Shown: positions 4,000 to 49,418 of the stretch, piece by piece
How positions within the stretch are numbered: the first letter of the stretch is position 1
Layout: each line of letters begins with the position of its first letter
Made by a program: the position numbers and the translations under genes
Notes under the pieces: generated by a model
The model's input: the letters and a program-made list of their open reading frames with translations, nothing else
Database searches by the model: none
Told to the model about the DNA's origin: nothing
DNA from: Actinomycetota bacterium
Lineage (GTDB): Bacteria > Actinomycetota > Actinomycetes > Mycobacteriales > Mycobacteriaceae
Reading direction: 5' to 3'
Length of the DNA: 64,000 nucleotides
NCBI GenBank assembly: GCA_036338755.1
Contig: JAYZBN010000007.1
Coordinates: forward strand, 3,702 to 67,701

Positions 4000-4979
4000 G
4001 CAACGCTCCGCGAGCCCAGCTCGTCGAGGACCAATTGAAGGACGCGCACCGCAACGTCGCGGTGGCCCTCGTTCATCACATGGGGGCTGAACCGCGCTTC
4101 AGCGAACAGGTTCACCAATTGGACGGCGTTGTCGGCGTGCAAAGCGTGGTGCTCCACCGCGCGGGCCAACACCTCGGTCGGAGTATCGAATTCCTGGGGC
4201 ACTGCGCCGGGAACCTGCGCGAGTTCACGTTCCATCGCGGCGTAGCAGGCGATGATCGCCTCACGCGGCTCTCGGCTCAGGTCGGTCATCTCGGCCAATC
4301 CACGCTCGGCCGCTCGCGCCAGCGACTCCGAACGTGCCGGGGGCGGCGGGGGTTCCGCCGGCTCGTCGGCGATGCCCGGAACCGCCGGACGCCAGCGCCG
4401 CCGCGCCGACGCGACCGTCCCGGCGACGAACATCCCCAACATGGCGACGGTGCAGGCGAGCAGGATTCCCAGCATGTTCTGCGATGCGTCGCGCGGACGG
4501 CTCGGATGCTGCTGCGACGGTGGCTGTGCGGGAGGCTGTGTCGACGGCGCTGCGCCGCTGTCGCGCGGTGACGGGCCGGGCGCGACGCCGTGGGGCAGAT
4601 ACCGGGTCAGCAGTATCACGACCCCCAGCCATGCCACGATCACGGCGAGTCCGATCAACAGCACGCGCCAGCTGGGTCGTCCCCTGCCGGTGCCCAGCAT
4701 GTCGGACAGCTGGCCAGCACTCGGCGCGGAAGTACGGGGGTCCCGCAAGCGCGCGACCACGGCGACCGCGATCAACGCAAGCGTCACGGCGAGAATCGCT
4801 ACCACGAAGGCCAGCGCCGCCCGGCCGCCCGACTCGCTGCGCGCCGCATCGTGCCGAGCCGGAAGGTAGCCGCGCAGGGCGGCGGCGACCACGAACAGCA
4901 GAACGATCAGGGCAACGACTCGCCCTGTCGGCTTGTCCATACCAGGCATTGGCACGCCACTCGATCGGTTTTTGCGCAC
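3996..4979 (-). CDS. DUF4129-type membrane protein (Rv3166c position)
   Basis: 327-aa ORF with several TM helices, a Pro/Gln-rich linker, and a C-terminal block typical of DUF4129 proteins that accompany MoxR/DUF58. Confidence 0.75.
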   Translation of the reverse strand: MRKNRSSGVPMPGMDKPTGRVVALIVLLFVVAAALRGYLPARHDAARSESGGRAALAFVVAILAVTLALIAVAVVARLRDPRTSAPSAGQLSDMLGTGRGRPSWRVLLIGLAVIVAWLGVVILLTRYLPHGVAPGPSPRDSGAAPSTQPPAQPPSQQHPSRPRDASQNMLGILLACTVAMLGMFVAGTVASARRRWRPAVPGIADEPAEPPPPPARSESLARAAERGLAEMTDLSREPREAIIACYAAMERELAQVPGAVPQEFDTPTEVLARAVEHHALHADNAVQLVNLFAEARFSPHVMNEGHRDVAVRVLQLVLDELGSRSVA

Positions 4980-5181
4980 TGGCTTTCCTCATACTTGCAC
5001 GTCAGACGAGCATGACGCCAGGAAAGAAGCGGTGGGCGCTCGCGTCCTCGACTATTGGCGATTCGTCCTGGTTCGTCGCCGGTCCGCCGGTCGGATCTTG
5101 CCTATCCCCGTCGAGACGATCGACGCCGCCCTGTTGCCGCCGTGGGTGGCACCGCGAATCGCCGCGTGCACCGACACCAAG

Positions 5182-6171
5182 TCACAGCTCGTCGGCGTCA
5201 ATGCGTGACAGCACGATGTCAAATCTGTCGCGGCGCTCCAATCGCGCGAGGTCGCGAAGCCGCTTCGGGGCGCGAACATCCTTTGACCACAGGTAGCGCC
5301 ACGGCCAGTAGTTGGCCGGCATCAGGTAGACGTGGTAACCGCGCTCGAGGTAGGGCCGCAGCACATCGATGGGTCGCAGCCGCGGATCGCTCCAGCATTT
5401 TGCCTCGACCTCGACAAAGATTTCCGCCTCCGATGCGAGTTGATCGAGGGATGTCAGCATGCCGGTGAGCACGCGGTCTTCGGCGCTCTCCACATCAATT
5501 TTGATCAGGCGCGTGGTGGCCAGTTCCTCGCGAGTCACCAGTGATCCGAGCGGTGCGGCACGCACGCGGCCGTGTTCACGGAGTAGAGGGTGACCTTGAG
5601 CCGCTCGGGGGACCGTCGTGGAGCGGCCCAGAGACAGGAAGCTGGGTCCGACGAACAGCGGAAGTTCCTCGTCGCGATCCGAGACGGCGGCACTGACCAG
5701 GCGTATGTTGGCGAGATCGTTCATCGCAATCGTTTGCCGTAGTGCGGTGTTCGCGATGGGAGCCGGTTCTATGGCCACAACGACGCCGCGCGGACCGACT
5801 AGTCTGCTGGCCATCGCGCTCTTGTACCCGACGTTCGCACCGACGTCGATGAAGGTGTCGCCGGGCCGCAATCGGCGCCGCAGGAATGCCGTGAGGTCGG
5901 GTTCCCACGTTCCGAATAAGTACACGAACGTCTGGACACCGTCTGGCAGACGGCATCGAAAATGGATGCCGTCTTCGGTGGTGTGATCGACGGTCAGCGG
6001 CCGCAACAATGTGGCGCGGATCAAGAGCACCAAAGCTACTACGTAGTACGGCACTACTACCGGCAATCCCCGCATGAGGCGCTCGGCAACACCGACGTGT
6101 TCCTTATCGGTCCGGAGAGATTGTATGTATTTCCGCCATAGCGCCAACATCCGCGCCTCGATCATTTGCAC
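5182..6171 (-). CDS. FkbM-family SAM-dependent methyltransferase with an N-terminal TM anchor
   Basis: Motif FIDVGANVGY and overall Methyltransf_21 (FkbM) layout. N-terminal helix VVVPYYVVALVLLI. The 5' part of the gene is noticeably less GC-rich than its surroundings. Confidence 0.8.
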   Translation of the reverse strand: MQMIEARMLALWRKYIQSLRTDKEHVGVAERLMRGLPVVVPYYVVALVLLIRATLLRPLTVDHTTEDGIHFRCRLPDGVQTFVYLFGTWEPDLTAFLRRRLRPGDTFIDVGANVGYKSAMASRLVGPRGVVVAIEPAPIANTALRQTIAMNDLANIRLVSAAVSDRDEELPLFVGPSFLSLGRSTTVPRAAQGHPLLREHGRVRAAPLGSLVTREELATTRLIKIDVESAEDRVLTGMLTSLDQLASEAEIFVEVEAKCWSDPRLRPIDVLRPYLERGYHVYLMPANYWPWRYLWSKDVRAPKRLRDLARLERRDRFDIVLSRIDADEL

Positions 6172-6400
6172 AGCCTAGCCTCCGATACGTCGATGCATGT
6201 GAAATCGCCACTTGCGGAGGGAAAATCGCGATTACCGGCATGTGCCGGCGAACGAACGACACATGCGTCTGGCCCTTGAGCCCACCCTCAAGGGTGACCT
6301 GACGAAAGACCGATCGATACCTCCTGGCTGACGCTTCTCGTCTGCCTAGTCACGAAAGTGCTTGCCCTGCAAAAGATAGAGACGATGAGTGATGTGCAAA

Positions 6401-8626
6401 TCAGCTCTCGGCGAGCGCGCGGTCGGCCAGCGCCCCGATCGCCGGAGCCAATAGCCGGGAATAATCGCCGGTCAGGTGATTCCAGTCCGCGTACACGAGG
6501 GCGTTGCCGACGATGACGGGACAGCGGTCAGCGGTGCAGAACAGATCGGTCACGTCGGCGTACTGTCCGCCCGCGGCTTTGGTGGCGGCCGACTCACCCG
6601 CGATGCCGGACTCGTTCACCGCCCGCGATCGTGGCGGCGAGCAGGCTGTCGCGTCATCGAGATGCCCGGACAGGCAGACGGGAACCACCACATGGGGATC
6701 CGGGATCGGCCCGAGCACCAAGACTTGGGTACCGATGCCGCGCAGCTGCTGCACGAGGCGGGTCAAGCTGCCCATCCACGCCGAGTCATATGTCCTGAAA
6801 TCGGGCACCCAACCGAAGCTGGATTCATACCCCCGCCACATGCTCACCACGACCAGTCGCGGCCGCTCCGCACGCAGGCGGGCGATGATCCGATCGCGCC
6901 ACTGGTCGCAGTGCAAACTGCGCGTGTTTCCGATCGGTATGTCCATCAACGGGCAGCCCGCCTTCATCAGCATCTCCAGGCGCCAGCGCCGCTGGGTGCC
7001 CAGCTGTCGGAATGCGGGATTCCACATCATGGCATGTGAGTCGCCGACCAGGGCCACCGTGGTGGTGGAGGTGGTATCGCCGGTCGCGCATTCGGGTTGG
7101 TCGACTTGGAAAAAATCGCGCATGCAGCTGTCGAGGGTCATGGCTCTGAGTTGGTTTTCCGCATCTGCAAGCGCCGGGGTCAGATTCGACGGTACGGCTT
7201 TCAGGTCCGCGGATGCCGCGAGCGCGGTCTGCACTTGGGCGAACGCGCGCTGCACCGCCGCGTTGTAAGCGTCGATGTTGCGCCCCGTTGGAGGGGGCGA
7301 TGCGTTGATGGTCGGCGCCGGAGCTGGTGCACCCCGGCCGACCGGAAGTGGCATCCATACCAGCAGCGCCACGCCCACACAGACCGCTAGCGCGGTGGCG
7401 CCGGCGCCCAGCGCGAGACTACGAAGCGGAGAGCGGCGTATGGCGGCGGCGAATCGAAACGGGTTCTCGATGAGATGCAGTGTCAGCACTGCCAGCCCGC
7501 CGGAGACGAATACCGCCGCCAACCTGCCGACCAAGCCCAGTGAGTGGCCCAGCAACGGCGCCGCGAGCACCAGCACCGGCCAGTGCCACAGGTACCACGA
7601 ATACGACACCCTGCCGATCGCCCGCATCGGCGACAATGCCAGGACGCGCCCGCATCCATAGGAGGGCGCGGCACAGCCGGCGCCGATCACCAGCGCCGCG
7701 CCCAGCACCGGCCAAAGGGCAGCAGTCCCCGGATAGGGCGTGGTCGTCCTCAGCAGGGTGCAGGTCAGCAAGATGATCGCCAGCCCTGCCCATCCCGCAA
7801 TCGCGGCAAGCGTCGCCGGAAGCCGGCGCCAGTGGCCCGCCGTCAAAGCCACCAGACCGCCTGCGGCCAACTGCCATGCACGGGTGGGCAGCGAAAAGAA
7901 CGCAAAGGAAGGCACCACGTAAGTGGCCGCCAGCGACAGCGCGAACGACACGACCGCGACCACCGCAAGGACCGCCAGATACGGGCGTTGCGACGAGGGG
8001 GCCTCAGCCTTGCTGCGGCGTCGCACGCGCCGGATGAGCCATGCCGTACCGATGATCATGGGCGGCCACACCAAATAGAACTGCTCTTCTACGCCCAAGG
8101 ACCAGTAATGCAGGAACGGCGAGGGCAAGACAGCGGTGAAGTAGTCAACGGCTTGCAGAGTGAACCAGTAGTTCCCGACATACAGCGCGCTGGCGATGCC
8201 ATCCCCAAAAACGGTACGGGCCTGCAACGGAGGTAACACGATCGCCGAGACGATCACCGTGATGACGCCGACCGTGGCAGACGCGGGGAGCAGTCGGCGG
8301 GCACGCGCCCCGTAGAAACGGCGCAGCCGCACGGTGCCGACGGTGCTCACCTCGCGCCACAGCAGCCCCGTGATCAGAAAGCCGGAGATCACGAAGAACA
8401 CGTCGACGCCGACGTACCCACCACCGACACCGGGCACGTCAGCGTGAAAAAGGACAACGCCCAACACCGCGACCGCGCGCAAGCCCTCGATGTCTGACCG
8501 AAAACTTGCCGGTGCCGAGCGCTGTCCCTGAAGCCCTTCGACGGAACTAACGTGGCTCTGGCCCAAGGTCACCAACTTCGTAAGAGGATGCGTCCTTCGA
8601 GTAGGGGCATTGTTACATTTCGCCAC
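6401..8626 (-). CDS. Acyltransferase-3 (OafA/YrhL-type) membrane protein with a C-terminal SGNH domain
   Basis: N-terminal AT3 signature (LRAVAVLGVVLFHA...VDVFFVISGFLIT) and about 10 TM helices. C-terminal extracytoplasmic part contains VALVGDSHAMMW (SGNH block I). The start is probably downstream of 8626. Confidence 0.85.
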   Translation of the reverse strand: MAKCNNAPTRRTHPLTKLVTLGQSHVSSVEGLQGQRSAPASFRSDIEGLRAVAVLGVVLFHADVPGVGGGYVGVDVFFVISGFLITGLLWREVSTVGTVRLRRFYGARARRLLPASATVGVITVIVSAIVLPPLQARTVFGDGIASALYVGNYWFTLQAVDYFTAVLPSPFLHYWSLGVEEQFYLVWPPMIIGTAWLIRRVRRRSKAEAPSSQRPYLAVLAVVAVVSFALSLAATYVVPSFAFFSLPTRAWQLAAGGLVALTAGHWRRLPATLAAIAGWAGLAIILLTCTLLRTTTPYPGTAALWPVLGAALVIGAGCAAPSYGCGRVLALSPMRAIGRVSYSWYLWHWPVLVLAAPLLGHSLGLVGRLAAVFVSGGLAVLTLHLIENPFRFAAAIRRSPLRSLALGAGATALAVCVGVALLVWMPLPVGRGAPAPAPTINASPPPTGRNIDAYNAAVQRAFAQVQTALAASADLKAVPSNLTPALADAENQLRAMTLDSCMRDFFQVDQPECATGDTTSTTTVALVGDSHAMMWNPAFRQLGTQRRWRLEMLMKAGCPLMDIPIGNTRSLHCDQWRDRIIARLRAERPRLVVVSMWRGYESSFGWVPDFRTYDSAWMGSLTRLVQQLRGIGTQVLVLGPIPDPHVVVPVCLSGHLDDATACSPPRSRAVNESGIAGESAATKAAGGQYADVTDLFCTADRCPVIVGNALVYADWNHLTGDYSRLLAPAIGALADRALAES

Positions 8627-17305: not shown

Positions 17306-17479
17306 CTGCAATTCCCTCCGCGCCCATCGTCCATCCGCCAACACTAGATTGAGATACCCTGCCCGATACTCGCGAAACGACGCGAGCGCATCTTCGCAGG
17401 CTGGCCCAGCTTTCGCCGGTCGACCCTTGTGTCCGCCGCAGCACTATGACGGCCTCTGCACAAGGAGGAGACTTGAGAG

Positions 17480-18388
17480 GTGACGACTGACGAGCATGGC
17501 CGAGGCGTCGAGCTGGTGGTCCTGCTGGCGTCGGCAGGCGGTCTGGAACCGCTGTCGACCGTATTGCGAGGTTTGCCCTCCGACTTTCCCGCCGCGGTCG
17601 TCGTGCAACAACACCTGGGCGGTCACCACAGTCTGCTGACCACGATCCTGCACAGGCACACGGGACGTGCGATCGGCTGGGCGCAGGACGGAATGGTGCT
17701 GCGGTCCGGGCAGGTGGTCGTCTGCCCACCGACGGTACTGCTGCAACTCGACCCCGACGGCCGCTGCCGCCTGCAGACTGCCCAGAGGCATCAGGCGCTG
17801 GTGTTCGACGTGCTGCTGGCGTCGGTCGCCGGCTCGTTCGGCCCGCGCAGCGTCGCCGTGGTGCTGTCAGGTTCCGGACATGACGGCGCGGCGGGCACCG
17901 TCGCGATGAAGCTGGCCGGCGCCGCCGTCATCGCCCAAAGCCCGGAGACGGCGCAGTACCCGTCAATGCCGATCGCTGCCGCCCGCGCCGGCGCCGACCT
18001 GGTGTTGGACGTCGCCGAAATCTCCGACGTTCTCATCGGCATTGTCCGAGGGGCGGCACTCCCCCCACGGCGCAAATCGTCGGCACCGACTCCGGAGGAC
18101 CGACCCGATGCCGTCCTCACCTACGACGTTCTCGACCGGCTGCCTCCGAAGTTTGCGACCAATAGCGCGGCGGCGCGGGGCGAGCTCGCCCGGCTGCGCG
18201 CGGCGGAGCTCGAACGCCGCCGCAAGGAGCTGACGGCGGGATTCGGTGCCACGCGGGAAACGGTCGCCATGGCCCGGCGTAGGGCGCAGGAGTCGCGGTC
18301 CCGCGCTCAGCTGGCTCACCAGGCGGCCGAGGAGGCAACCACCCGGTGGCCCACCACAGCAGCGGGCCACCCCATTGCGGGCGGCTAA
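17480..18388 (+). CDS. CheB-type protein-glutamate methylesterase domain protein with a coiled C-terminal tail, no receiver domain
   Basis: Catalytic-triad contexts are present: LLASAGG (Ser), VVQQH (His), SGSGHDG (Asp). RBS AAGGAGGAG lies upstream of the GTG start. The stop codon overlaps the convergent CheR-PAS stop codon. Confidence 0.8.
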   Translation: MTTDEHGRGVELVVLLASAGGLEPLSTVLRGLPSDFPAAVVVQQHLGGHHSLLTTILHRHTGRAIGWAQDGMVLRSGQVVVCPPTVLLQLDPDGRCRLQTAQRHQALVFDVLLASVAGSFGPRSVAVVLSGSGHDGAAGTVAMKLAGAAVIAQSPETAQYPSMPIAAARAGADLVLDVAEISDVLIGIVRGAALPPRRKSSAPTPEDRPDAVLTYDVLDRLPPKFATNSAAARGELARLRAAELERRRKELTAGFGATRETVAMARRRAQESRSRAQLAHQAAEEATTRWPTTAAGHPIAGG

Positions 18389-20226
18389 CCCACCACCTCC
18401 ATCAGCAGCAACGCCCCGCCGACCGTCCCCTCGATCGAACGGAACGACGTGCAGGTGATGCGCACGGTCGCCGGGCGGCCACGCCGGTTGACCGCCTCCA
18501 CCACGACTTCGCCGGAGCTCTCCGGGTCGACGAAAGCGTTGCCGATCAGCGGCCGCACAGCGTCGAGCGGTAGGCCGATGTCCAGATTTGTCAGCCCGGT
18601 CCCCGTCGTCTCATCTGCACGCAATCCCCAGAGCTCCTCACAGCCGCGGTTCCACAAGATCACCTTCATCTCGCGGTCGACCACCACCATGCCCATCTGC
18701 ACCGAGTCGATCAGCGAGTCCTGGAAATGCTTGGCTTCGTCGAGTTCCAGGCTGCGCTCGCGCAGCATGTCGTTGATGGTGTGCAGTTCGTCGTTGGTGG
18801 ACTGCAACTCCTCGTTCATCGTCTCGAGTTCTTCGTTGGTGGACTGCAATTCCTCGTTCGTGGTCTCGAGTTCCTCAACGGTGGACTGCAATTCCTCGTT
18901 GGTCGTTTCGAGTTCTTCGTTGGTGGACTGCAGCTCCTCGTAGGCGGCCTCCAGCTGGCGGTTGGTCTGGACGACCTTGTCGAGCAGCGCGCGGGTCGCG
19001 GTGACGTCGAAGAAGACGATCGACACGCCGAGCAGACCGTTCTCGGCGTCGACCAGTGGATTGACGTGGATCTCGAACCACACCGTTTCGGCGCCCGGGC
19101 GTTGCCATTTGACGTCTTGGATCCGCGCCGAGCGCCGCTCCACCTTGGCCTGCTCCAGGTACGCGCGCAGCTCGACCGGACGGTAGGACACCTCGAGATC
19201 GCGCAGCAGCCGGCCGATGTCGCGGGCCGAGAGCCCGAAGATGGACTCGGCCTGCTGGTTGATCATCGCGACGGTGTCTTCACCGGTGACCACGATCTGT
19301 GCCACCGGGCTGGCACGAAAGGCCAAGTCGCGCACCGTCGTCAGCCCAGACAGGTCGATGTTGCGTTCGTAGAACGCCGCGTTCGGGTCGTAGCGATCCA
19401 CGCCGCCGTGGGTTCCGGCCGCCTTGCGAAAGATGCGGTGCTTGAGGTTCAGCGGGGTGAACCTGTCTCCGTGACTCAGCAGCATCTCGGCATGCCCGAG
19501 AAACAGCGTGCCCTGCGGCGCAAGGGCAAAATGCAGACGCCCCAACACGTTTCGTTGGGTCTCCGCATTGAGGTACATCAGGCTGTTACGGCACACCAGG
19601 AGGTCGACGCGCTAAATCGGCGCGTCCTTGACCAGGTCGTTACGCCCGAAGATCACCGCGCGGCGCAGGTCCTTGTGAAACACGTAGCGGCCGTTGACGT
19701 GTTCGAAGTAGCGTTCCAACAGATCCGCGGGTACGGATTCGACCGCCTTGGCGTCGTAGGAGGCGATGCGCGCCTCGCTCAGCGCGTCCTCGTCGACGTC
19801 GGTGGCGTAGATCTTGACGCGCTGCCGGAATCCGTCGGGTCCCAGCGCCTCGGCCAGCAGCATGGCCAGCGTGTAGGCCTCCTGTCCGGAGGCGCAGCCG
19901 GCGCTCCACACCCGGATCGGATCGTTGGGGCCGCGCTCGGCCAGCAGCCGCGGGATGACCTCCGCGCTGACGAACTCCCAGGCATCCGGGTCCCGGAAGA
20001 ACGAGGTGACGTTGATCAGGATGGTGTTGAACAGCGCGGTGAATTCGTCGGAGCTGGCCTGCAGGAAATCGAGGTACTCGTCGAATGCGGTGTAGCCCGC
20101 CTGGTCCATCCGGTGGCGGACGCGGCGCATCAGAGAGGTGCGCTTGTAGCCGGTGAAGTCGAAGCCGCGCGAGTCCCGCATATAGCGCAGCAGGGCTTCG
20201 AACGCCTCGTCAGTCGTGGATTCCAT
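18385..20226 (-). pseudogene. CheR-type methyltransferase-PAS-coiled coil-PAS protein interrupted by one in-frame TAG
   Basis: ORFs 19612..20226 and 18385..19596 are in the same frame and separated only by TAG at 19612-19614: ...VKDAPI*RVDLLVCRNSLMYL... The stop codon sits inside the conserved CheR SAM-domain block. The upstream part carries VWSAGCASGQEAYTLA. Confidence 0.75.
18771..18939 (-). repeat. Coding tandem repeat: eight 21-bp heptads (42-bp super-unit x4) encoding EELQSTN/EELETTN
   Basis: Minus-strand translation reads EELQSTNEELETTNEELQSTVEELETTNEELQSTNEELETMNEELQSTNDELHTIN. The DNA units are visibly repeated (ctcgttggtggactgcaa.. / ctcgagttcttcgtt..). Confidence 0.85.
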
Positions 20227-20278
20227 CCAAGTCCCGTCGATAGGGGTGTATCGAAGGATTTGAACATTACTCGCGACG

Positions 20279-21037
20279 TCAGAAGTGGTTTTCCCGACCG
20301 ATCAATGCCCATACCGTTTTGCCCGACGAGGTCGGGGTCGCACCCCATGCCCGGCACATAGCGGCGACGATGGCCAGTCCCGAGACGACATCCGCGCCGA
20401 GGTCGGCATCTTCATGCCGCCCCGGCAGGTGGGAACTGCTGTCCTCCACAGCGACGGTGACTGTGTCTTGATAGCTCTCGACGATCAGCACCGGTGCGCT
20501 CTCCGTGTGGTCCAGAACGTTTTCGACGAGGACAGTGGCCAGTGTGGCAGCGACCGGTATCACCTCACTGATGTCCCACTGGGTGAGCCATTCGGCGATC
20601 ACACTGCGCGCGACCTGCAGGCTGCTGACGTTTCGCGCAAGGCTGGCGCGCGCCCGCCGACGGACCTGGAACAACCGGTCCTGCAGGGCATTTCGGGCGA
20701 GCTCCAGGCTGGCGTGTATCGGCACATAGCGGGTAACACCGGCGTTGATCATCTCCTGCTGCACCCACGCCTCGCCACACACGAGCAGGATCGGCACGTC
20801 CGGCCAGATGCTGACGTGCCAGCGGGCGCTGGTGAATACGGTCCATGCGGAAGCCGACGGCGCGCGCAGACGGTTGATGTCGACAATCACCGCACGGGGC
20901 TCGTCGATCGCGGCCTTGATGACGGCGTCGCGAACGGTCCGATAGGTCGAGCTGTCCAGCACGCCCTCGATGGTCAGGATCGGTAGGTCTTCTGAGGTTT
21001 CCAGCTCGATTCGGACCGCCGGTCGATCGTTACTCAT
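20279..21037 (-). CDS. STAS (anti-sigma antagonist-like) domain fused to an RsbW-like HATPase_c (anti-sigma kinase-like) domain
   Basis: Start at MSNDRPAVRIELE; the ATG overlaps the upstream CheB stop codon (ATGA, 21034-21037). N-terminal STAS fold (LTIEGVLDSSTYRTVRDAV...VIVDINRL). C-terminal N-box LVENVLDH, but the G1 box position reads VEDSSSH with no DxGxG. Confidence 0.7.
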   Translation of the reverse strand: MSNDRPAVRIELETSEDLPILTIEGVLDSSTYRTVRDAVIKAAIDEPRAVIVDINRLRAPSASAWTVFTSARWHVSIWPDVPILLVCGEAWVQQEMINAGVTRYVPIHASLELARNALQDRLFQVRRRARASLARNVSSLQVARSVIAEWLTQWDISEVIPVAATLATVLVENVLDHTESAPVLIVESYQDTVTVAVEDSSSHLPGRHEDADLGADVVSGLAIVAAMCRAWGATPTSSGKTVWALIGRENHF

Positions 21038-22047
21038 CCGGTTTCGCCCTCCTGCTGGGCAGCGGTCGACAGCCGGTCGCTGAGCAGTGTCAGGGCACGC
21101 TCGGTCTCGGCCGCAATTGCCGTGTAGCGCCGGTGCAGTGGACCGGTTCCGGCTTTGCCGGCCATGTCGCGGGCTAGCTTGGCCTTTTCCTGCAGGCTGC
21201 GCACCGCGATCCACAGCGCCCCCTCGAGCTCGGCGTCCCGCGCGCCGAGCAGCGCCTCGGCCGTCCACGCATGGCCCACATGGCAGCGAAAGTTGGCCTC
21301 ACTGATGGAGATCAGCGAGCCGTTGCAGTCGGGACAGGTGTAGCCCGATGGGGGCCCCAGTTTTTCGGTGTCGAAGTCGGTCGCGAACCGCGACATCATG
21401 GCGATGCGGTTCTCGAGCTCCATGGCGGCGTCGCGCTCCATGTCAAAATCCCTTATCTCTCGGTGCGACAGCTCTTTGAGGACCGCGCCGATATCGGCCG
21501 CCGGGGACTGCCGATCCACCACGCCGGCCCGCGCGGCGGTGGTGGGCATCGCCGGGAACAACGCGTCCTCGGGCGCCTGCGCGATGGTGGTGCCGCCGCG
21601 CGAACGGATGGCTCCCATTCCCAGCACGCCGTCATCGAGCACGCCGGAAAGCAACACGCCGATTGCGCGGGGCCCGAAGTTCAGGGCCACCGACCGGAAC
21701 AACGCGTTGATCGCAGGCCGGTGCCCGTTCTCGGTTGGCCCCTGCGACAGGAGTACATGATGGTCGGCGACCAGCAGATGGCGATCCGGAACCCCGACAT
21801 AGATGCGCCCCTGTTCCAGGGGTGCCCCGTCCTCGGCGGCGACCGCGGGCAGCGGACCGCTGCGGTCGATGATGCGGGCCAAGATGCTGGGCGCGCCGGG
21901 GGGGATGTGCAGCACCATCAGATAGGCGTAGGGCACGTCCGGCGATAACCCGGCCGCAAGGTTCGACAGCGCTTCGACGCCTCCCGCCGACGCACCGATC
22001 GCTACCACACCTTGCAGGGCGCCGACTTCAGCCGTCTCAACCACCAC
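21034..22047 (-). CDS. CheB-type methylesterase domain protein with a C-terminal Cys/His zinc-ribbon-like extension, no receiver domain
   Basis: IGASAGG (Ser), MVLHIPPG (His), LSGVLDDG (Asp). C-terminal CPDCNGSL...FRCHVGH. GTG start at 22047. Confidence 0.8.
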   Translation of the reverse strand: MVVETAEVGALQGVVAIGASAGGVEALSNLAAGLSPDVPYAYLMVLHIPPGAPSILARIIDRSGPLPAVAAEDGAPLEQGRIYVGVPDRHLLVADHHVLLSQGPTENGHRPAINALFRSVALNFGPRAIGVLLSGVLDDGVLGMGAIRSRGGTTIAQAPEDALFPAMPTTAARAGVVDRQSPAADIGAVLKELSHREIRDFDMERDAAMELENRIAMMSRFATDFDTEKLGPPSGYTCPDCNGSLISISEANFRCHVGHAWTAEALLGARDAELEGALWIAVRSLQEKAKLARDMAGKAGTGPLHRRYTAIAAETERALTLLSDRLSTAAQQEGETG

Positions 22048-22110
22048 TTTCGACTACCCCTATAGATGGTAGGCAACCCTTTCCCTCCTGGATAGGGCTG
22101 CGGTCATCCC

Positions 22111-22136
22111 GTTTGCGCCGGTCAGACGGTGGTACT
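22111..22136 (+). promoter_or_regulatory. SigF-type promoter candidate for katE (GTTT-N16-GGTACT)
   Basis: GTTT at 22111-22114 and tGGTACt at 22130-22136, about 26 nt upstream of the katE ATG and just upstream of its RBS. Confidence 0.4.
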
Positions 22137-22161
22137 CCCCACGGTTGAAAGGAGGCGAGCC

Positions 22162-24264
22162 ATGGCCGCCGATCAAAATCCGAAACAGCGCGATCTGGAC
22201 TCCGCGCGGTTCCGCCGTGACACCGGATACCTGACCACGCAACAGGGCGTTCGCGTCGACCACACCGACGATTCGCTGACGGTCGGTGAGCGAGGACCGA
22301 CACTGCTGGAGGACTTCCACGCCCGCGAGAAGATCACCCACTTCGACCACGAACGCATCCCGGAGCGCGTGGTGCACGCACGTGGAGCCGGCGCCTACGG
22401 TTTTTTCGAGCCATACGAAGACTGGCTGGCCGATCACACCGCGGCGAAATTCTTGACCACTCCTGGCCTTCAGACGCCGGTGTTCGTTCGATTCTCCACG
22501 GTGGCCGGGTCGCGCGGATCGGCCGACACGGTGCGCGACGTACGCGGCTTCGCCACCAAGTTCTATACCGAACAAGGCAATTACGACCTGGTGGGCAACA
22601 ACTTCCCGGTGTTCTTCATCCAGGACGGCATCAAATTCCCCGACTTCGTGCACGCGGTGAAACCAGAGCCGCACAACGAGATTCCGCAGGCGCAGTCCGC
22701 ACACGACACATTGTGGGACTTCGTGTCGCTGCAGCCCGAGACCCTGCACACCATCATGTGGCTGATGTCGGACCGGGCGCTCCCGCGCAGCTACCGCATG
22801 ATGCAGGGCTTCGGCGTGCACACCTTCCGGCTGGTAAACAACAGCGGGGAAGGCACTTTCGTCAAGTTTCACTGGAAGCCCCGGCTCGGGGTGCACTCAC
22901 TGATCTGGGACGAATGCCAAAAGATCGCCGGCAAGGATCCCGATTACAATCGCCGCGATCTGTGGGAGGCCATCGAGTCCGGGCAATACCCGGAGTGGGA
23001 GCTGGGCGTGCAGCTGATCGCCGAGCCCGACGAGTTCGACTTCGATTTCGATCTGCTCGACGCGACCAAACTCATTCCGGAAGAACAGGTTCCGGTTCGC
23101 CCGGTGGGCAAAATGGTGCTGAACCGCAACCCGGACAATTTCTTCGCCGAGACCGAGCAGGTGGCGTTTCACACGGCGAACGTGGTGCCCGGCATCGACT
23201 TCACGAACGATCCGCTGCTGCAGTTCCGCAACTTCTCCTACTTAGACACTCAGCTGATCCGCCTGGGCGGCCCCAACTTCGCTCAACTGCCGATCAACCG
23301 GCCGGTGGCCGAAGTGCGAACCAACCAGCATGACGGCTACGGACAGCACGCGATCCCGCAGGGGCGCTCGAGCTACTTCAAGAACAGCATCGGCGGCGGC
23401 TGCCCGGCGCTGGCCGATGAGAACGTCTTCCGCCACTACACAGAGCGACTCGACGGGGAGACAATGCGCAAGCGCGCCAAGTCGTTTGAGAACCACTACA
23501 GCCAGGCGCGGATGTTCTGGCTGAGCATGTCGGCGGTCGAAGCCGAACACATCGTTGCCGCGTTCGCCTTCGAGCTCGGCAAGGTCGAAGTGCCCGAGAT
23601 CCGTTCGGCCGTGGTGGAACAACTCGCGCGAGTCGACAGTGGGCTGGCCGCGCAGGTGGCGGCGAAGCTGGGTCTTCCCGATCCGCCCGAGGAGCCCGTC
23701 GACAATCGGGTGGCCCCGTCGCCGGCGCTCTCCCAGATCGGTGTCAGCGACACCATCACCTCGCGCAAAATCGCGGTCCTGGCCGCCAACGGTGTCGACG
23801 TGGTGGGGACGCAACGCCTCATCGAGCAGATGGGCGAACGCGGCGCCATGGTCGAGGTGTTGGCACCGGTCGCCGGTGGCACGTTGGAGGGCGGATCCGG
23901 CGGCGAGCTTCCGGTCGACCGATCGTTCACGACGATGGCATCGGTGCTTTATGACGCCGTCGTGGTGGCGTGCGGGCCACAATCGGTGCAGACCCTGTCC
24001 GACGACGGCTACGCGGTGCACTTCGTGACCGAGGCCTTCAAACATCTGAAGCCGATCGGCGCCTACGGGGCGGGCGTCGACCTGCTCCGCACGGCCGGCA
24101 TCACGAATCGACTCGCCGAGGACACCGACGTCGTCAACGATCAAGCCGTCATCACCACCAAAGCCGCTGCCGATGAGTTGCCGGACCGCTTCGTCGAGGA
24201 GCTGGCCGCCGCTCTCGCCCGCCACCGTTGCTGGGAGCGGCGCACCGACCCGATTCCTGCCTAA
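22162..24264 (+). CDS. katE: Large-subunit monofunctional catalase (HPII type)
   Basis: [20 protein letters not shown] heme-catalase signature, about 700 aa including the C-terminal flavodoxin-like domain. ATG follows the RBS GAAAGGAGG. Confidence 0.95.
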
Positions 24265-24338
24265 GACGTGGTTTTCTCCGCGCCCGGGGCGGGCACTCCG
24301 AGATTCGGGGCGTCTCATGGTGGACAGGAGGATCGCTG

Positions 24339-24596
24339 ATGCCGCGTTCGTCGATCAAGAATGAAAAGCTGTATCAGGATTTGCGTAAAAAGGGCGACTC
24401 CAAGGAGAAGGCCGCGCGCATCTCTAACGCGGCCGCCGCCCAGGGCAAGTCGAAGGTCGCGCGTAAGGGCGGCAAGTCCGGGTCTTATCAGGACTGGACC
24501 GTGGCGGAACTCAAGAAGCGGGCCAAAGAGCTTGGTATGTCCGGCTATTCAAGCCTGACCAAAGACAAGTTGGTCGCCAAACTGCGTAATCACTAG
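24339..24596 (+). CDS. Small basic protein with a C-terminal Rho_N/SAP-like motif
   Basis: 85 aa. RBS GGAGGA precedes the ATG. C-terminus reads WTVAELKKRAKELGMSGYSSLTKDKLVAKL (Rho N-terminal-like helix-extended-helix). Confidence 0.75.
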   Translation: MPRSSIKNEKLYQDLRKKGDSKEKAARISNAAAAQGKSKVARKGGKSGSYQDWTVAELKKRAKELGMSGYSSLTKDKLVAKLRNH

Positions 24597-25168: not shown

Positions 25169-25225
25169 GGTGAATAGGTCATACCCGGCCTGTCCCGGGA
25201 GCAACCTGGCGAGGCGGCCAAGGCC

Positions 25226-28172: not shown

Positions 28173-28409
28173 CTACTGGTTCTTCTTCTGCCGCTCCTCG
28201 GCGGCGTCGGCGCCCGCGCGCGCCGACTCAGCTTCGGCTTCCTTCTTGCCCGCATCGCGTTGAGCGTCGGCTTTGTCCTGCTGGGCCTGGCCCTCTCTGT
28301 GCAAGTCGTCGCGCCCGAGCACGGCCCCGCCGACCTCTTTGACCTTCCCCTTCACGCCTTCCACGGTGCCCTTGACCGCTTCCTCCGGCCCGCTCTTGTC
28401 ATCCCCCAT
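28173..28409 (-). CDS. CsbD-family general stress protein
   Basis: 78 aa. KGTVEGVKGKVKEVGG...GQAQQDKADAQ is typical CsbD. RBS GGGAGG lies upstream of the ATG at 28409. Confidence 0.85.
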   Translation of the reverse strand: MGDDKSGPEEAVKGTVEGVKGKVKEVGGAVLGRDDLHREGQAQQDKADAQRDAGKKEAEAESARAGADAAEERQKKNQ

Positions 28410-28465
28410 GGGTTCAACCTCCCTCTCGGTGATTACTGAGCTTGCGCTCGCATGGCACCTAGGGC

Positions 28466-28490
28466 GTTCCCACCGCACGCCCCATCAAAC
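28466..28490 (-). promoter_or_regulatory. SigF-type promoter candidate for the csbD-like gene (GTTT-N15-GGGAAC)
   Basis: Minus-strand GTTT at 28490-28487 and GGGAAC at 28471-28466, about 57 nt upstream of the ATG. Confidence 0.4.
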
Positions 28491-28535: not shown

Positions 28536-28560
28536 GTTTGAACGAGGCCTGTTTGGGTAG
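28536..28560 (+). promoter_or_regulatory. SigF-type promoter candidate for the NmrA-like gene (GTTT-N15-GGGTAG)
   Basis: GTTT at 28536-28539 and GGGTAG at 28555-28560, 17-20 nt upstream of the GTG/ATG start at 28578/28581. Confidence 0.5.
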
Positions 28561-34013: not shown

Positions 34014-34574
34014 TCAGCCTTTGCCGAGGATGGTGTCGCGGGCCCGGTCAAGCATCGCCGCGAACGGTCCGGCGGCCAGATTGGCCACCTGCGATTCCAC
34101 TCCGGGGTGCGGGCGGGTGGGCGCAATCGCCTCGGCGAGCTTGGCGGCGCGCCCCATGCGCTCGAGCTCCTCGCCGCTCAATTCCTCACCCAGCTTGGCG
34201 AATTCGTCGTACTCCTCGTGCTCGGCGTGTTCGATGACCGCGTCGCGCAGCTTGGTCAATTCGCGAGTGAACTCCTCGCTGTCGACGTCAAGCTTTTCCA
34301 GCTTCTGCAGAACGGTCTTGGCTTCGTGCTCTTCGTGGAGGCGCTTGTCGACCACGGCGGCGCCGTCGGAGATCTTGCGCTTGGCGCGGGGGTGCACGAT
34401 CTCCTCCTCCGCGGTTTCGTGGACGGCGAGCAGCCGCCGAAGCTCGACGAAGGCCTTCTCGCGGGCCTTTCCGGACGCCGCCAGTGTCTCGGCGAACATC
34501 GCTTTGATCTGCTCATGCTGACTGACGAGGAAGTCGACCACGTCGGTGGGCGACTTGATGGCGTTCGTTGCCAC
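34014..34574 (-). CDS. Hemerythrin (HHE cation-binding) domain protein
   Basis: H/E ligand pattern (VSQHEQI, HETAEEEIVHP, HEEHE, IEHAEHEE). 186 aa. Confidence 0.85.
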   Translation of the reverse strand: MATNAIKSPTDVVDFLVSQHEQIKAMFAETLAASGKAREKAFVELRRLLAVHETAEEEIVHPRAKRKISDGAAVVDKRLHEEHEAKTVLQKLEKLDVDSEEFTRELTKLRDAVIEHAEHEEYDEFAKLGEELSGEELERMGRAAKLAEAIAPTRPHPGVESQVANLAAGPFAAMLDRARDTILGKG

Positions 34575-34632: not shown

Positions 34633-34658
34633 CTACCCGACGAATCCGGGCGTCAAAC
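34633..34658 (-). promoter_or_regulatory. SigF-type promoter candidate for the hemerythrin gene (GTTT-N16-GGGTAG)
   Basis: Minus-strand GTTT at 34658-34655 and GGGTAG at 34638-34633, 59 nt upstream of the ATG. Confidence 0.5.
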
Positions 34659-41031: not shown

Positions 41032-41123
41032 GGCGCAATCAATACCCTGCTTACCGGACCGTCAAACTGTGCGTCACGCCCGAAAGCGCCGCGACTTACT
41101 GGAAAGCCTTGGCGCATAGGAGA

Positions 41124-42305: not shown

Positions 42306-42367
42306 GGGAGGGCGATACCCGTCTCGCACCCGTCGAAACCGCTTTGCCACCGCTGTCGCGAATGGCT

Positions 42368-45202: not shown

Positions 45203-45265
45203 CGCTTCTCCTCAAAGGCATAGCGGGTTGGGTACCCGGCGTCGGCCGGCGCAATCCGGAACGGC

Positions 45266-45764: not shown

Positions 45765-46223
45765 GTGACCACCATGCTGATGCGTTCAGATCCGTTCCGT
45801 GAGCTCGACCGCTTCGCTCACCAAGTCCTCGGCACTGCCGCCCGGCCGGCAGTGATGCCGATGGACGCCTGGCGCGAAGGCGAGAAATTCGTCGTCGAGT
45901 TCGACCTGCCCGGCATCGATGTCGACTCGCTGGACATCGACATCGAGCGCAATGTGGTGACCGTGCGCGCCGAACGGCCGGCCGTCGATCCCAACCGCGA
46001 GATGCTGGCCACCGAGCGGCCGCGCGGCGTCTTCAGCCGCCAGCTGGTGCTCGGCGAGAATCTCGATACCGAAAAGATCGAGGCCTCCTACGCCGAAGGC
46101 GTTCTGCGCCTGCATGTTCCGGTGGCCGAGAAGGCGAAGCCGCGCAAGATCACGGTCGGCCGCGGGGACACGCCGCGGGCCGTCCGGGACAGCGCCGGCG
46201 AGCGCGAGGTCATCAACGCCTGA
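45765..46223 (+). CDS. hsp18: Hsp20/alpha-crystallin small heat-shock protein (18-kDa antigen type)
   Basis: [21 protein letters not shown]...[21 protein letters not shown] is nearly collinear with the M. leprae 18-kDa antigen as I recall it. The true start may be the ATG at 45774. Confidence 0.9.
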
Positions 46224-46329
46224 CCGACCGGCGGCCCGGGCGGCGGTCAACTCCCCCGACCACCGCCCGCCGCCGGCCCCGGACCACCGGTGCGGACGTC
46301 TCGCCCGGCGCCAGGAAGACCGAATCCAG

Positions 46330-47013
46330 ATGAAATGGGAACTCGATGGCCAGACGGCCAACGTCGAACGGGCGTTGGCCGGCGGCGCCGCACAACCGGC
46401 GGGCTGGTTTCGGTTCTACTTCACCGACCAACGCTGGGAATGGTCGGAACAAGTGCAACGCATGCACGGGTATGAGCCCGGCAGCGTCACTCCGACCACC
46501 GATCTGGTGCTCTCGCACAAGCATCCCGAAGACCGCGGGCATGTCGCGGCCACCATCGATCAAATAGTCCATACGCACCAGGCGTTCAGCACTCGGCATC
46601 GCATCGTCGACACCCGGGGAAATGTGCGCCACGTCGTCGTCGTCGGCGACCGGATCTTCGACGACGACGGTGACGTGATCGGAACGCACGGGTTTTACAT
46701 CGACGTCTCGGGACCGCGCGAGCGATCGCGCGAGGACGAGATGAGCGCGAAAATCGCTGAAATCAGCGAGAATCGGGCCGCCATCGAACAGGCCAAGGGC
46801 ATGCTGATGCTGATCTACGGCCTCAGCGAAAGCGCGGCGTTCGATTTGCTCAGGTGGCTGTCCCAGGAAGCGAATGTCAAGCTGCGACCGCTGGCCGAGC
46901 AGATTGCCGAAGACTTCCGCCGAGCCGGCCTGCCGCTGAACACGCAGTCGCAATTCGATCACCTGATGCTGACCGCGCATGAGCGCGTCCACCCGTCCGC
47001 CGACCACGAGTAA
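46330..47013 (+). CDS. PAS-ANTAR RNA-binding regulator
   Basis: PAS-like N-terminus (WEWSEQVQRMHGYEPG...HPEDR). ANTAR motif IEQAKGMLMLIYGLSESAAFDLLRWLSQEANVKL. Confidence 0.85.
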   Translation: MKWELDGQTANVERALAGGAAQPAGWFRFYFTDQRWEWSEQVQRMHGYEPGSVTPTTDLVLSHKHPEDRGHVAATIDQIVHTHQAFSTRHRIVDTRGNVRHVVVVGDRIFDDDGDVIGTHGFYIDVSGPRERSREDEMSAKIAEISENRAAIEQAKGMLMLIYGLSESAAFDLLRWLSQEANVKLRPLAEQIAEDFRRAGLPLNTQSQFDHLMLTAHERVHPSADHE

Positions 47014-47040
47014 AACTTTGGCGGGCAACGCCGTTGGCCC

Positions 47041-48753
47041 TCAGTGGTCGATCAGCGGGGCGACCCAGTGGACCCGGGTGCCGCCGCCGGGCGCACTGGT
47101 GATCTCACAAGTGCCGCCGAGTTGTTCGGCGCGCCGCTTCATGTTGGCCAAGCCGCTGTGCCGCGTGTTGCCGGCCGGTATGCCGCATCCGTCGTCGACC
47201 ACGTCCAGGGTGAAGGTGTCCGCGACGCTGACGTCGACGGTCAGCCGCGACGCGCCCGCATGACGCAGGGCATTGCTGACGGCTTCGGTGGCGACGGCTT
47301 CGGCGTGGTCGGCCAGTTCGGTACCGATGGCGGTCGTCGGCCCGTCCAGGCGCACGGTGGCGACGAGATCACGGTTTTCGGTCAGGTCGGCCACCACCCG
47401 CTGGATGCGCCGGCGGAAATCACCGCTCGCGGCGATCGGGTCCTTGAGCGCGAAGATCGTCGTGCGGATTTCCTCGATGATGGTCTGCAGATCGTCGAGC
47501 GTGCGATTGAGCCGCTCGGCCACTTCGGGCGAACGCGCCCTTGCCAGCGTGCCTTGCAAGTTCATCCCGGCCGCGAAGAGGCGTTGAATGACGTGGTCGT
47601 GCAGGTCATGGGCGATGCGTTCGCGCTCAGCCAGGATGGCCAACTGCCGCGCGTCCTCGCGTGCCGACGCCAGCACCAGCGCGATGGCGGCATGCGTGGC
47701 GAAATCGCTGACCAGGTCCAGATAGCTCTCGTTGAACGGCGGCTGCTCGGCGCCGCGGGCGATCGCGATCACCCCGACGACCTCGTCGCGGGCGCGTAGC
47801 GGCATCACGATCGCCGGGCGCTGCCCGACGTCGGTGAAGGCCTGGATCGGGTACTGCAATTCCTCGGTGATCAGCGGTTCGCCGGATCGGTACACGGCGC
47901 CGCTGGTGGAGCCGTCCACCGGAACCCGTTGACCGAGCACATCGGAGGCGTGCAAACCCACCGCAGCGGAGACCACCAGCGTGTCGGCATCGTCGTCGGC
48001 CGCGTCGGCGTCGGCCGGCACCAGCACGATGGCCTGTTCGGCGCCGGTCAACACGCGCGCGCGTTCGGCGATCAGTTGCAGGGGGCGGTGGTGCGGTTCG
48101 GAACGTGACAACAGCGCGGTGGTGATCTCGCGGCTGGCCTCCATCCACTTCACCGATGTCCGTTCGCGTTCGAAGACCTGCGCATTGTCGATGGCGACGG
48201 CGGCCGCGAACGCCAACGCGCGGGCGGCAACCTCGTCGGACTCGGAGAACACCCGCTTTGGATCGGTGTGGGTGAGATACAGGTTGCCGAACACGGTGTC
48301 GCGGATGGTGATCGGAACCGCGAGGAAGGCACGCATTCTCGGATGGTGCTCGGGAAAACCGACGGCGGCGCGGTGCGTCGTCAGATCGTCCATCCGCAGC
48401 GCGGGCGTGTCCAGCAGTGACAAGCTCAACAGACCCCTGCCGACCGGCAGGTGCCCGATGCGCGAAACCGTCTCGGCGTCCATGCCCTCGTGGACAAACG
48501 ACTTCAAGTTGCCGTCGCGATCGCGGATAGCCAGCGCGCCGTATTGTGCGGAGGTCAAATCCCTTGCCGCACTGAGGGTCCGATGCAGAGTGGCGTCGCG
48601 ATCGAGGCCCGCGCCGATCTCGACGATGACCCGAAGCAATCGCTCCATCTGATCGCGCGCGTCCAGCAACTCGTCGAGCTGGGCGTGCATCTTGGTGACC
48701 AGCCCGCGCTGCCCGAAATCCGTGGACCCCGAGCCGTTTTCGCCGCCGGTCAC
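47041..48753 (-). CDS. devS: Tandem-GAF heme sensor histidine kinase of the DevS/DosT type
   Basis: GAF-A block [39 protein letters not shown]...[17 protein letters not shown] parallels DevS. HisKA_3 ([16 protein letters not shown]) and HATPase domains follow. The GTG start overlaps the devR stop codon (GTGA). Confidence 0.85.
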
Positions 48754-49418
48754 CCCGACCAGTCCGGCGCTGTCGATGATGGGCCGGCCCGCTGATTCAG
48801 TTTCGAAGCGAACACCGCGGCCTGGGTGCGGCGCTCCATGCCGAGTTTGGCCAACAACCGCGAGACGTAGTTCTTCACCGTCTTCTCCGCGAGGAACATC
48901 CGCGCGGCGATCTGCCGGTTGGTCAATCCCTCGCTGAGCAGTCCGAGCAGCGTTCGCTCCTGCTCGGTCAGCCCGGACAGCGGGTCGTCGCGCGCGGTCG
49001 TACCCCGCAGCTTTGCCATCAGCGCCGCGGCCGCCCGGTTGTCCAGCAGCGATTTACCGGCGCCCACCTCTTTGATCGCGTGGGCCAGCTCCATGCCCTT
49101 GATGTCTTTGACGACGAACCCGCTGGCGCCGGCCAGGATCGCCTCGAGCATCGCCTCGTCGGAGGTGAACGACGTCAACATCAGGCAGCGTAGGTCGGGA
49201 TGATCCGACACCAGGTCGCGACACAGTTCGATGCCGTTGCCATCGGGCAGACGAACGTCGAGGACGGCGACGTCGGGCGACAGCGCCGGTATCCGCGCTT
49301 TCGCCTCCGCCACCGTGCCGGCCTCGCCGACGATCTGGAGATCGGGGTCGGAAGCGAGCAGATCGGAAAGACCGCGGCGGACGACTTCGTGGTCGTCGAC
49401 CAGGAACACCTTGACCAT
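48750..49418 (-). CDS. devR: Dormancy survival response regulator (NarL/LuxR family)
   Basis: Long runs identical to M. tuberculosis DevR/DosR as I remember it: [95 protein letters not shown]. Confidence 0.92.

Follow-up and report, generated by a model that had tools for sequence, protein, structure and literature searches.

A conserved CheB, STAS-GHKL and CheR-PAS gene set of Mycobacteriaceae as a possible methylation sensor tied to a partner-switching-type protein

The window analysed in this work is a stretch of 64,000 nucleotides (64 kb) from a genome deposited as Actinomycetota bacterium and placed in the Mycobacteriaceae (GenBank assembly GCA_036338755.1, contig JAYZBN010000007.1, positions 3,702 to 67,701 of the forward strand). 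It contains a cassette in which the genes for a CheB methylesterase (cheB2), for a fusion of a STAS and a GHKL domain (the STAS-GHKL protein), and for a CheR methyltransferase joined to two PAS domains (cheR-PAS) follow one another on the minus strand, and in which a second methylesterase gene (cheB1) converges on cheR-PAS. The three-gene core is a genuine conserved module of Mycobacteriaceae and some of their relatives. The results below partly support the earlier, sequence-only reading of this DNA: the methylation enzymes form a conserved module that does not serve chemotaxis, tied both by position and by transcription to a protein of the partner-switching type, and the cassette probably belongs to the SigF regulon. 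We give a probability of about 0.5 to the mechanism that we infer for it, namely that the operon encodes a methylation sensor of the K13924 kind, independent of methyl-accepting chemotaxis proteins (MCPs), and that this sensor is linked to a partner-switching protein of the SigF regulon. The features of the cassette, in positions of the window, are as follows.

17480..18388, plus strand: cheB1, receiver-less CheB-type methylesterase of 302 amino acids (Pfam CheB_methylest, 7.6e-43)
18385..20226, minus strand: cheR-PAS, with CheR_N and the S-adenosylmethionine (SAM) domain of CheR, PAS1, a heptad coiled coil and PAS2 (translation; Pfam on two halves)
18388..18729, minus strand: PAS2 domain, residues 500-613 approximately (Pfam PAS_8/PAS; column identity 0.76-0.85)
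18793..18939, minus strand: heptad array in the coiled coil, residues 430-478, with candidate methyl-accepting Glu-Glu pairs
18982..19341, minus strand: PAS1 sensor domain, residues 296-415 approximately (Pfam PAS/PAS_4/PAS_9/PAS_10; column identity 0.91-0.97)
19612..19614, minus strand: in-frame TAG in the SAM-binding domain of CheR, between Pfam profile positions 130 and 141 of 195
20279..21037, minus strand: fusion of STAS (RsbV/SpoIIAA-like) and GHKL (RsbW/SpoIIAB-like) domains, 252 amino acids
21034..22047, minus strand: cheB2, receiver-less CheB methylesterase of 337 amino acids (Pfam CheB_methylest, 2.2e-50)
22054..22078, minus strand: candidate SigF-type promoter of the cheB2 operon, GGTT-N15-GGGTAG, ending 6-7 nucleotides before the GTG start codon
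22111..22134, plus strand: weaker SigF-like candidate before katE, GTTT-N15-TGGTA(C)
22162..24264, plus strand: katE, large-subunit haem catalase, the divergent neighbour (Pfam Catalase, 1.2e-178)

Conservation of the core and its promoter

The window is mycobacterial DNA of high GC content (about 66%). The STAS-GHKL protein is 100% identical to a protein recorded under "MAG: Actinomycetota bacterium" (MAG, metagenome-assembled genome), and its nearest named relatives, with 65-81% identity among the matches listed, are from Mycobacterium sp., M. colombiense, M. mantenii and M. avium. When the GTDB species representatives were scanned with a narrower alignment of the family (A3), 293 stretches encoding a relative were found, and the best 80 were all from Mycobacteriaceae. 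For comparison of gene content, 82 related loci from Mycobacterium, Mycolicibacter, Mycolicibacterium and Skermania were searched by tblastn with the window proteins and checked for stop codons and frameshifts, some of which come from draft genomes or MAGs and are possibly sequencing errors. The order of cheB2, STAS-GHKL and cheR-PAS was intact in 50 of the 82 loci, in the midst of varied flanking genes, and the linkage in related genomes on which an earlier interpretation of this DNA (the sequence-only reading) had depended was therefore found to be conserved. For instance, M. avium subsp. hominissuis has katE diverging from cheB2, followed by the STAS-GHKL gene, an intact cheR-PAS gene for 616 amino acids, convergent cheB1, a GT4 glycosyltransferase gene and an AraC gene, with flanks identical to those of the window. 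In Skermania, whose STAS protein is 39-40% identical, cheB, the STAS-GHKL gene and cheR-PAS are kept in unrelated flanks, and cheB1 is absent. The cheB1 gene, whose stop codon overlaps that of cheR-PAS, was intact in only 27 of the 82 loci. Three loci without the convergent cheB1 (L063, L075 and L077) each have an extra CheB1-like gene (35-37% identity) about 2.7 kb downstream of cheR-PAS, on the plus strand and in the same orientation.

The spacer between katE and cheB2 was found to hold two blocks that are conserved across species, an element on the katE side and, on the opposite strand, the stronger element GGTT-N15-GGGTAG, which faces the cassette. DNA of katE adjoins the cassette in 21 of the 82 loci (full-length in 16-18), and in the alignment of the spacer GGGTAG was invariant in all 18 sequences, that is, in the window and 17 loci. 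In 53 of 63 loci, the motif G[GT]T[TA]-N14-17-GGGTA also stands immediately upstream of cheB2, irrespective of the gene that lies beyond it, and in most of the 53 it ends 7-11 nucleotides ahead of the start codon. It has been reported that SigF-dependent promoters of M. smegmatis have the consensus GTTT-N14-19-GGGTA, and that the SigF-dependent promoter of MSMEG_6211 reads GGTT-N15-GGGTA and lies 9 nucleotides from the start (PMC4694148); a mycobacterial consensus of GGWWT-N16-17-GGGTAY has also been given (PMC7693655). Because the cheB2 element is conserved, has the form of these documented promoters and ends a few nucleotides before the start codon, which would imply a leaderless mRNA, the cheB2 operon is probably expressed as a leaderless transcript under the control of SigF or a SigF-like sigma factor.

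The sequence-only reading had assigned a SigF-type promoter candidate to katE, whose ATG at 22162 is preceded by GAAAGGAGG, and this was not borne out as stated. The block on the katE side has two mismatches to GGWWT-N16-17-GGGTAY and is nevertheless conserved across species, but such an element does not rise above chance by count, and the better of the two elements faces the cassette. A catalase of M. smegmatis, KatA, is SigF-dependent, with the promoter GTTT-N16-GGGAA (PMC4694148). With up to one mismatch, 18 matches to the SigF consensus were counted in the window against 12 +/- 3 expected, which is not above chance; perfect matches (GGWWT-N15-GGGTAY) elsewhere in the window numbered 2 against 0.2 expected. 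For the SigF signal, cross-species footprinting was informative and motif counting with up to one mismatch was not.

The encoded proteins

The Pfam scans covered 50 open reading frames (ORFs) across the window, with a few small ORFs outside the scan. In CheB1 and CheB2 only CheB_methylest was matched, starting at residue 12-15, and no receiver (REC) domain was found in either. S18, H45 and the Asp of GHDG in CheB1 align with the catalytic Ser164, His190 and Asp286 of the CheB structure 1A2O, as do GASAGG, LH and LDDG of CheB2 in alignments to the CheB structures 1CHD and 1A2O, and the Ser-His-Asp triads of both proteins are kept in orthologues; the two stand-alone CheBs with intact catalytic contexts described in the sequence-only reading were thus borne out. 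NCBIfam has no specific model for these proteins, and every CheB or CheR match was far under the equivalog cut-offs. The C-terminal tail of CheB1 is charged and poorly conserved. In CheB2, the methylesterase domain comprises residues 12-192 and is followed by a family-specific C-terminal domain at about residues 230-334 (window positions 21046-21360, minus strand), in which, among 45 orthologues, C238, C255 and H259 do not vary and C241 is conserved to at least 90%. The AlphaFold model of CheB2 was poor for the catalytic domain and confident for the C-terminal domain, with a predicted local distance difference test score (pLDDT) of 81-97 for residues 230-334, which form four short strands and then two helices (263-299 and 303-334). 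In the model, the domain consists of a zinc-ribbon-like Cys/Cys/Cys/His module and, after it, a long hairpin of helices; it matched no Pfam family, and Foldseek returned no structural relative from the PDB. One may speculate that it docks the coiled coil of CheR-PAS or the STAS-GHKL protein.

The architecture of CheR-PAS, a methyltransferase followed by PAS, coiled coil and PAS, was as the sequence-only reading had given it according to Pfam, whereas the TAG at 19612-19614, which interrupts the frame as sequenced, had been overlooked there. The sequence around the TAG in the window is GCGCCGATTTAGCGCGTCGAC; in the M. avium orthologue a serine codon (TCG) occupies this position, within DAPISRVDLLVCRN. 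This intact orthologue of 616 amino acids aligns over the full length and differs by a 3-residue N-terminal indel and scattered substitutions, and beyond the single TAG the window gene is free of further damage; M. avium and 49 other loci have an intact cheR-PAS. An exact look-up of the two truncated CheR-PAS products gave no independent record of the TAG. As sequenced, cheR-PAS is either a pseudogene or contains an assembly error of the MAG consensus. A genuine TAG would be a nonsense mutation of very recent origin; the methylating arm would then be dead, and of the cassette proteins in this organism only the CheBs and STAS-GHKL would be left in function. Of the two PAS domains, PAS2 showed weak similarity to the haem PAS domain of DosP in a search of PDB sequences.

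The coiled coil between the PAS domains was found to be the most conserved segment of CheR-PAS, with 98-99% column identity among 57 orthologues, which is above that of the CheR catalytic core and, judging from the alignment, appears to exceed what a purely structural coiled coil would need. Its heptads are, in order, EELQSTN, EELETTN, EELQSTV, EELETTN, EELQSTN, EELETMN and EELQSTN. Six EExx[AST][ST] motifs occur in it at an exact spacing of 7 residues, and the 13,465 amino acids of the other window proteins contain none. For MCPs a methylation consensus has been described, and the sites 297, 304 and 311 of Tsr are likewise spaced by 7 (PMC1079850). The heptads appear close to this consensus, the sole deviation being Ser or Thr for Ala, and it is plausible on these grounds that the coiled coil is the internal methyl acceptor of CheR-PAS.

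Database searches with the coiled coil and with the C-terminal domain of CheB2 gave short fragments only, the listed matches being up to about 1.75 times the length of the query. The same heptads were present in 116 of 120 fragments found with the coiled coil, several of which are annotated as "CheB/CheR fusion protein" (K13924). Two genomic contexts of coiled-coil or CheB2 fragments came from error-ridden assemblies, and the informative one was a metagenomic contig of 52% GC (L089), itself from a noisy assembly, where positions 4020-7640 encode a CheB whose zinc-ribbon tail resembles that of CheB2 and, after it, CheB, CheR, PAS, the heptad coiled coil and PAS. The family-wide heptads and this locus place the che part of the cassette in a widespread, uncharacterised family. 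The locus also suggests that two CheBs with CheR-PAS formed the ancestral module; the STAS-GHKL gene is a lineage-specific addition to it.

The start codon of the STAS-GHKL gene overlaps the stop codon of cheB2 as ATGA, and GGAGG lies upstream, in agreement with the translational coupling that the sequence-only reading had proposed. With the single sequence, Pfam matched STAS at an E value of 5e-6 and, in the C-terminal half, HATPase_c at only 0.089. A search of the full database yielded 528 clusters in the family at E <= 1e-10, and in a 72-member family alignment STAS was matched in 50 members and HATPase_c_2 in 37. The AlphaFold model (pLDDT 92.7, predicted template modelling (TM) score, pTM, 0.74) was compared with known structures by Foldseek. 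The N-terminal half matched RsfB (8ih8_A, TM 0.84), SpoIIAA, RsbV and RsbS at TM values of about 0.8, and the C-terminal half matched SpoIIAB (1l0o_A, E 3.6e-5, TM 0.67), UsfX (8ih8_D) and RsbW. The earlier description as a STAS-RsbW-like fusion is upheld by the family matches and by the model, in which the protein is predicted to combine the folds of both members of a partner-switching pair. Among the GHKL motifs, Asn173 of the N-box is nearly invariant, Asp199 of the G1 box is invariant, and G220 and L221 are invariant or nearly so. In a profile alignment to 1tid_B, Ser63 of a conserved "SA" aligns with the phosphorylated serine of SpoIIAA (the Ser58 position); it is invariant in the narrower alignment A3, not in every family member.

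Neighbouring genes

Genes of general-stress or dormancy type are found in several parts of the window: katE, genes for CsbD, hemerythrin, Hsp20, a DosS-like kinase, a DosR-like regulator and a nitroreductase, and genes for two ANTAR proteins. Three small genes of general-stress type lie around the cassette, those for the CsbD-like protein and the hemerythrin and an ORF in the place of a gene of M. avium, and other genes belong to a dormancy-regulon-like cluster at 45765-50611.

24228-24596, plus strand: ORF located where M. avium has a DUF7218/Rho_N protein
28173-28478, minus strand: CsbD-like protein
34014-34574, minus strand: hemerythrin
45765-46223: Hsp20 (dormancy-regulon-like cluster)
46114-47013: PAS-ANTAR protein (same cluster)
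47041-48753: DosS/DosT-like kinase, GAF-GAF-HisKA_3-HATPase (same cluster)
48750-49418: DosR-like REC-LuxR regulator (same cluster)
49637-50611: nitroreductase (same cluster)

It has been reported that the SigF regulon of M. smegmatis includes hemerythrin, catalases and an anti-sigma antagonist, and that the hemerythrin genes of that species are SigF-dependent (PMC4694148). Apart from those in the katE-cheB2 spacer, SigF-type matches were located just before seven genes, two of them perfect GGWWT-N15-GGGTAY matches, and judging from these motifs the window may be rich in SigF-regulon genes.

17354-17379, minus strand: before the GT4 glycosyltransferase gene
25181-25206, minus strand: before the gene for an NTP_transf_5-like protein
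28536-28559, plus strand: before the gene for an NAD_binding_10 protein
34634-34658, minus strand: before the hemerythrin gene
41042-41068, minus strand: before the gene for a CBM48/alpha-amylase protein
42315-42340, minus strand: before the alcohol dehydrogenase gene
45232-45257, minus strand: before the gene for a DUF1360 protein

Proposed mechanism, alternatives and known systems

We infer that the signal would flow from methylation to sigma-factor control in the following manner. In a cytoplasmic sensor, PAS1 would detect an intracellular cue, the CheR domain would methylate and the CheBs would demethylate Glu-Glu pairs in the coiled coil of CheR-PAS itself, and the methylation state would alter how the sensor engages the STAS-GHKL protein. 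The latter would work within the SigF partner-switching network, with the anti-SigF factor (UsfX/RsbW1) or a sigma factor as its possible binding partner. It has been shown that RsbW3, a SigF-induced homologue of RsbW in M. smegmatis, antagonises the anti-SigF factor RsbW1, resulting in positive feedback (PMC7693655), and the action of the STAS-GHKL protein may be similar; SigF would also induce the operon, and a feedback loop is therefore proposed. In addition to the cassette itself, this reading draws on the stress or SigF-regulon-type genes nearby (katE, CsbD and hemerythrin) and on the further SigF-type motifs. A more specific version is offered tentatively, and we regard it as rather doubtful: CheR-PAS would be a soluble, MCP-free methyl-accepting sensor whose own coil of six to eight heptads is reversibly modified by its CheR domain and the two CheBs, and the resulting adaptive "memory", of the kind known from chemotaxis, would in mycobacteria be read by the RsbV-RsbW-like protein that tunes SigF.

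Several observations weigh against the proposed mechanism. The spacer of the cheB2 promoter (15) is one base under that of GGWWT-N16-17-GGGTAY, and position 5 of the heptads is Ser or Thr where the MCP consensus has Ala. The glycines of the G1 motif DxGxG are replaced in the GHKL domain (D-S-S-S-H; D-x-S in the family), and for this reason kinase activity is doubtful and the kinase competence of the domain is uncertain as judged from the sequence. No sigma factor (Sigma70) and no SpoIIE/PP2C phosphatase was found among the 50 scanned ORFs of the window, nor were Sigma70 or SpoIIE/PP2C domains found in the annotated flanks of the M. avium and Skermania loci. The STAS-GHKL gene is absent from the CheB-CheB-CheR-PAS locus of the metagenomic contig, the STAS-GHKL homologues of Amycolatopsis (about 30% identity) are unlinked to che genes, cheR-PAS carries a premature TAG in this window, and about a third of the related loci keep the STAS-GHKL gene but have deleted or decayed che genes. 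The functional dependence between the che genes and the STAS-GHKL protein may therefore be weak. The sequence-only reading had seen in the cassette a self-contained methylation switch that feeds partner switching; the linkage, the folds, the promoter and the candidate acceptor agree with it, and the stop codon in cheR-PAS, the loss of che genes and the lack of a sigma factor or PP2C gene in the window do not.

The loss of che genes bears most directly on an alternative that we consider possible though unlikely, in which the STAS-GHKL protein is a stand-alone partner-switching protein of the SigF regulon and the che genes form a dispensable accessory in the course of loss, with the switch already dead in this organism. 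The STAS-GHKL gene is intact in 81 of the 82 loci, whereas 13 loci have neither cheB2 nor cheR-PAS, and in about 19 further loci at least one of the two genes is missing, frameshifted, interrupted by a stop codon or present as a remnant. Six loci without intact che genes (L012, L025, L032, L045, L056 and L080) keep the STAS-GHKL gene beside the GT4 gene; three of these also keep katE, two bear a short remnant of cheB2, and in L025 the STAS-GHKL gene has one stop codon. Remnants of che genes are visible in further loci as well (L013, L014, L016, L064 and L088). These GT4-adjacent loci together with the remnants elsewhere point to repeated deletion of the che genes, cheB1 included, and since the STAS-GHKL gene is kept when they are lost, their "wiring" to it is dispensable, and an independent function of the STAS-GHKL protein is probable. 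The TAG of the window and the unlinked Amycolatopsis homologues fit the same alternative. On the other hand, both che genes are intact in 50 of the 82 loci and under very strong purifying selection, with CheR-PAS 74-98% identical across genera and the catalytic triads kept; the window gene is otherwise undamaged, so that an assembly error is possible, and some of the frameshifts in draft genomes and MAGs may be sequencing errors too.

It is improbable, in our estimation, that CheR and the CheBs act on another protein, either the STAS-GHKL protein or an unlinked regulator, instead of the coiled coil of CheR-PAS. The translational coupling of cheB2 to the STAS-GHKL gene would suit such a target, the zinc-ribbon and hairpin domain modelled for CheB2 is conserved and could dock a partner, and CheR of Salmonella is reported to methylate PhoP, a regulator that is not an MCP (PMC8546571). 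Nevertheless, no Glu-Glu pair in a consensus-like context was seen on reading the sequence of the STAS-GHKL protein, and the consensus-like sites of the window are confined to the coiled coil, which is also the best conserved segment of CheR-PAS.

The adjacency of the STAS-GHKL and che genes could also be accidental, the outcome of a past insertion into a locus of the K13924 type that brought no functional connection. The existence of such a locus without the STAS-GHKL gene (L089) and of STAS-GHKL genes without che genes is in keeping with this, but at least four genera retain the gene order and the close coupling, by ATGA or very short gaps, while the flanks change, under one shared promoter, and even in the rearranged loci L066 and L074 cheR-PAS still lies within about 4 kb, which makes an accident very improbable. 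That these are ordinary adaptation enzymes for MCPs, CheA and CheW encoded elsewhere in the genome is hardly credible despite the clear CheB/CheR homology and the intact catalytic residues, since both CheBs are without the receiver domain that links canonical CheB to CheA, CheR is part of a fusion with PAS domains, the 50 scanned ORFs of the window (a few small ORFs being unscanned) contained no MCPsignal, CheW, CheA or single-domain CheY, no MCP, CheA or CheW was found in the Pfam-annotated 10 kb on either side of the M. avium locus or 8 kb on either side of the Skermania locus, and mycobacteria are, to our knowledge, non-flagellate and not known to encode chemosensory arrays. The sequence-only reading, which had denied a chemotaxis pathway and seen no MCP, CheA, CheW or CheY gene in the window, was supported in this, for the window within the 50 scanned ORFs.

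Methylation by CheR and its reversal by CheB are the textbook means of adaptation in chemotaxis, and their role in non-motile mycobacteria, including the M. avium complex, is without a description; the searchable literature yielded no work on what this cassette, K13924 proteins, the coiled-coil motif or mycobacterial CheB/CheR do. Should the coiled coil be the acceptor, with the STAS-GHKL protein as the output, the cassette would be an instance of reversible glutamate methylation that controls a stress sigma factor without a chemoreceptor. The SigF network, which governs the responses to oxidative stress and stationary phase, would thereby receive a new input, sensory adaptation would have been repurposed for sigma-factor control in a group of non-motile pathogens, and a mechanistic model would become available for the K13924 family, an uncharacterised one that is common in many phyla. 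The loci from which the che genes were repeatedly lost and in which the STAS-GHKL gene was kept provide natural "mutants" for comparison, and since strains of the M. avium complex can be cultivated, the idea is directly testable.

Among known systems, the K13924 "CheB/CheR fusion" family (CheB_methylest-CheR_N-CheR-PAS_10-coiled coil-PAS, often followed by a histidine kinase) has the same core of CheR, PAS, a coil of EELQSTN/EELETTN heptads and PAS as the cassette. In that family CheB and CheR usually form one polypeptide, whereas here they are encoded by separate genes, cheB2 being two genes upstream of cheR-PAS and cheB1 convergent with it, and in place of a histidine kinase output the STAS-GHKL gene stands between cheB2 and cheR-PAS. 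Compared with canonical chemotaxis adaptation by CheR, CheB and the methylation helices of MCPs, the enzymes are homologues with intact catalytic residues, the CheR domain being interrupted by the TAG in the window, but CheB has no receiver, an MCP signalling domain, CheA, CheW and a motility output are lacking nearby, and the candidate substrate is part of the methyltransferase polypeptide, with Ser or Thr instead of Ala at position 5 of the motif. With SigF partner switching (UsfX/RsbW1, RsfA, RsfB and RsbW3) and the SpoIIAA/SpoIIAB and RsbV/RsbW systems of Bacillus, the STAS-GHKL protein shares the superposition of both halves and a serine aligned with the phosphorylated serine of SpoIIAA, and the cassette has a SigF-type promoter, as does the SigF-dependent rsbW3 (PMC7693655). 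Unlike in those systems, the two domains are fused, STAS first and GHKL second, in 252 amino acids, the G1 box is without its glycines, neither a sigma factor nor a PP2C gene is adjacent, and CheB/CheR genes are linked. The Rv1364c-type protein of M. tuberculosis carries PAS, PP2C, RsbW and RsbV on one polypeptide, and a sensor, an anti-sigma-like kinase and a STAS domain are thus combined in a mycobacterium there as well. By description it has the kinase and then STAS, together with a phosphatase and without CheB/CheR, in an order that differs from that of the cassette.

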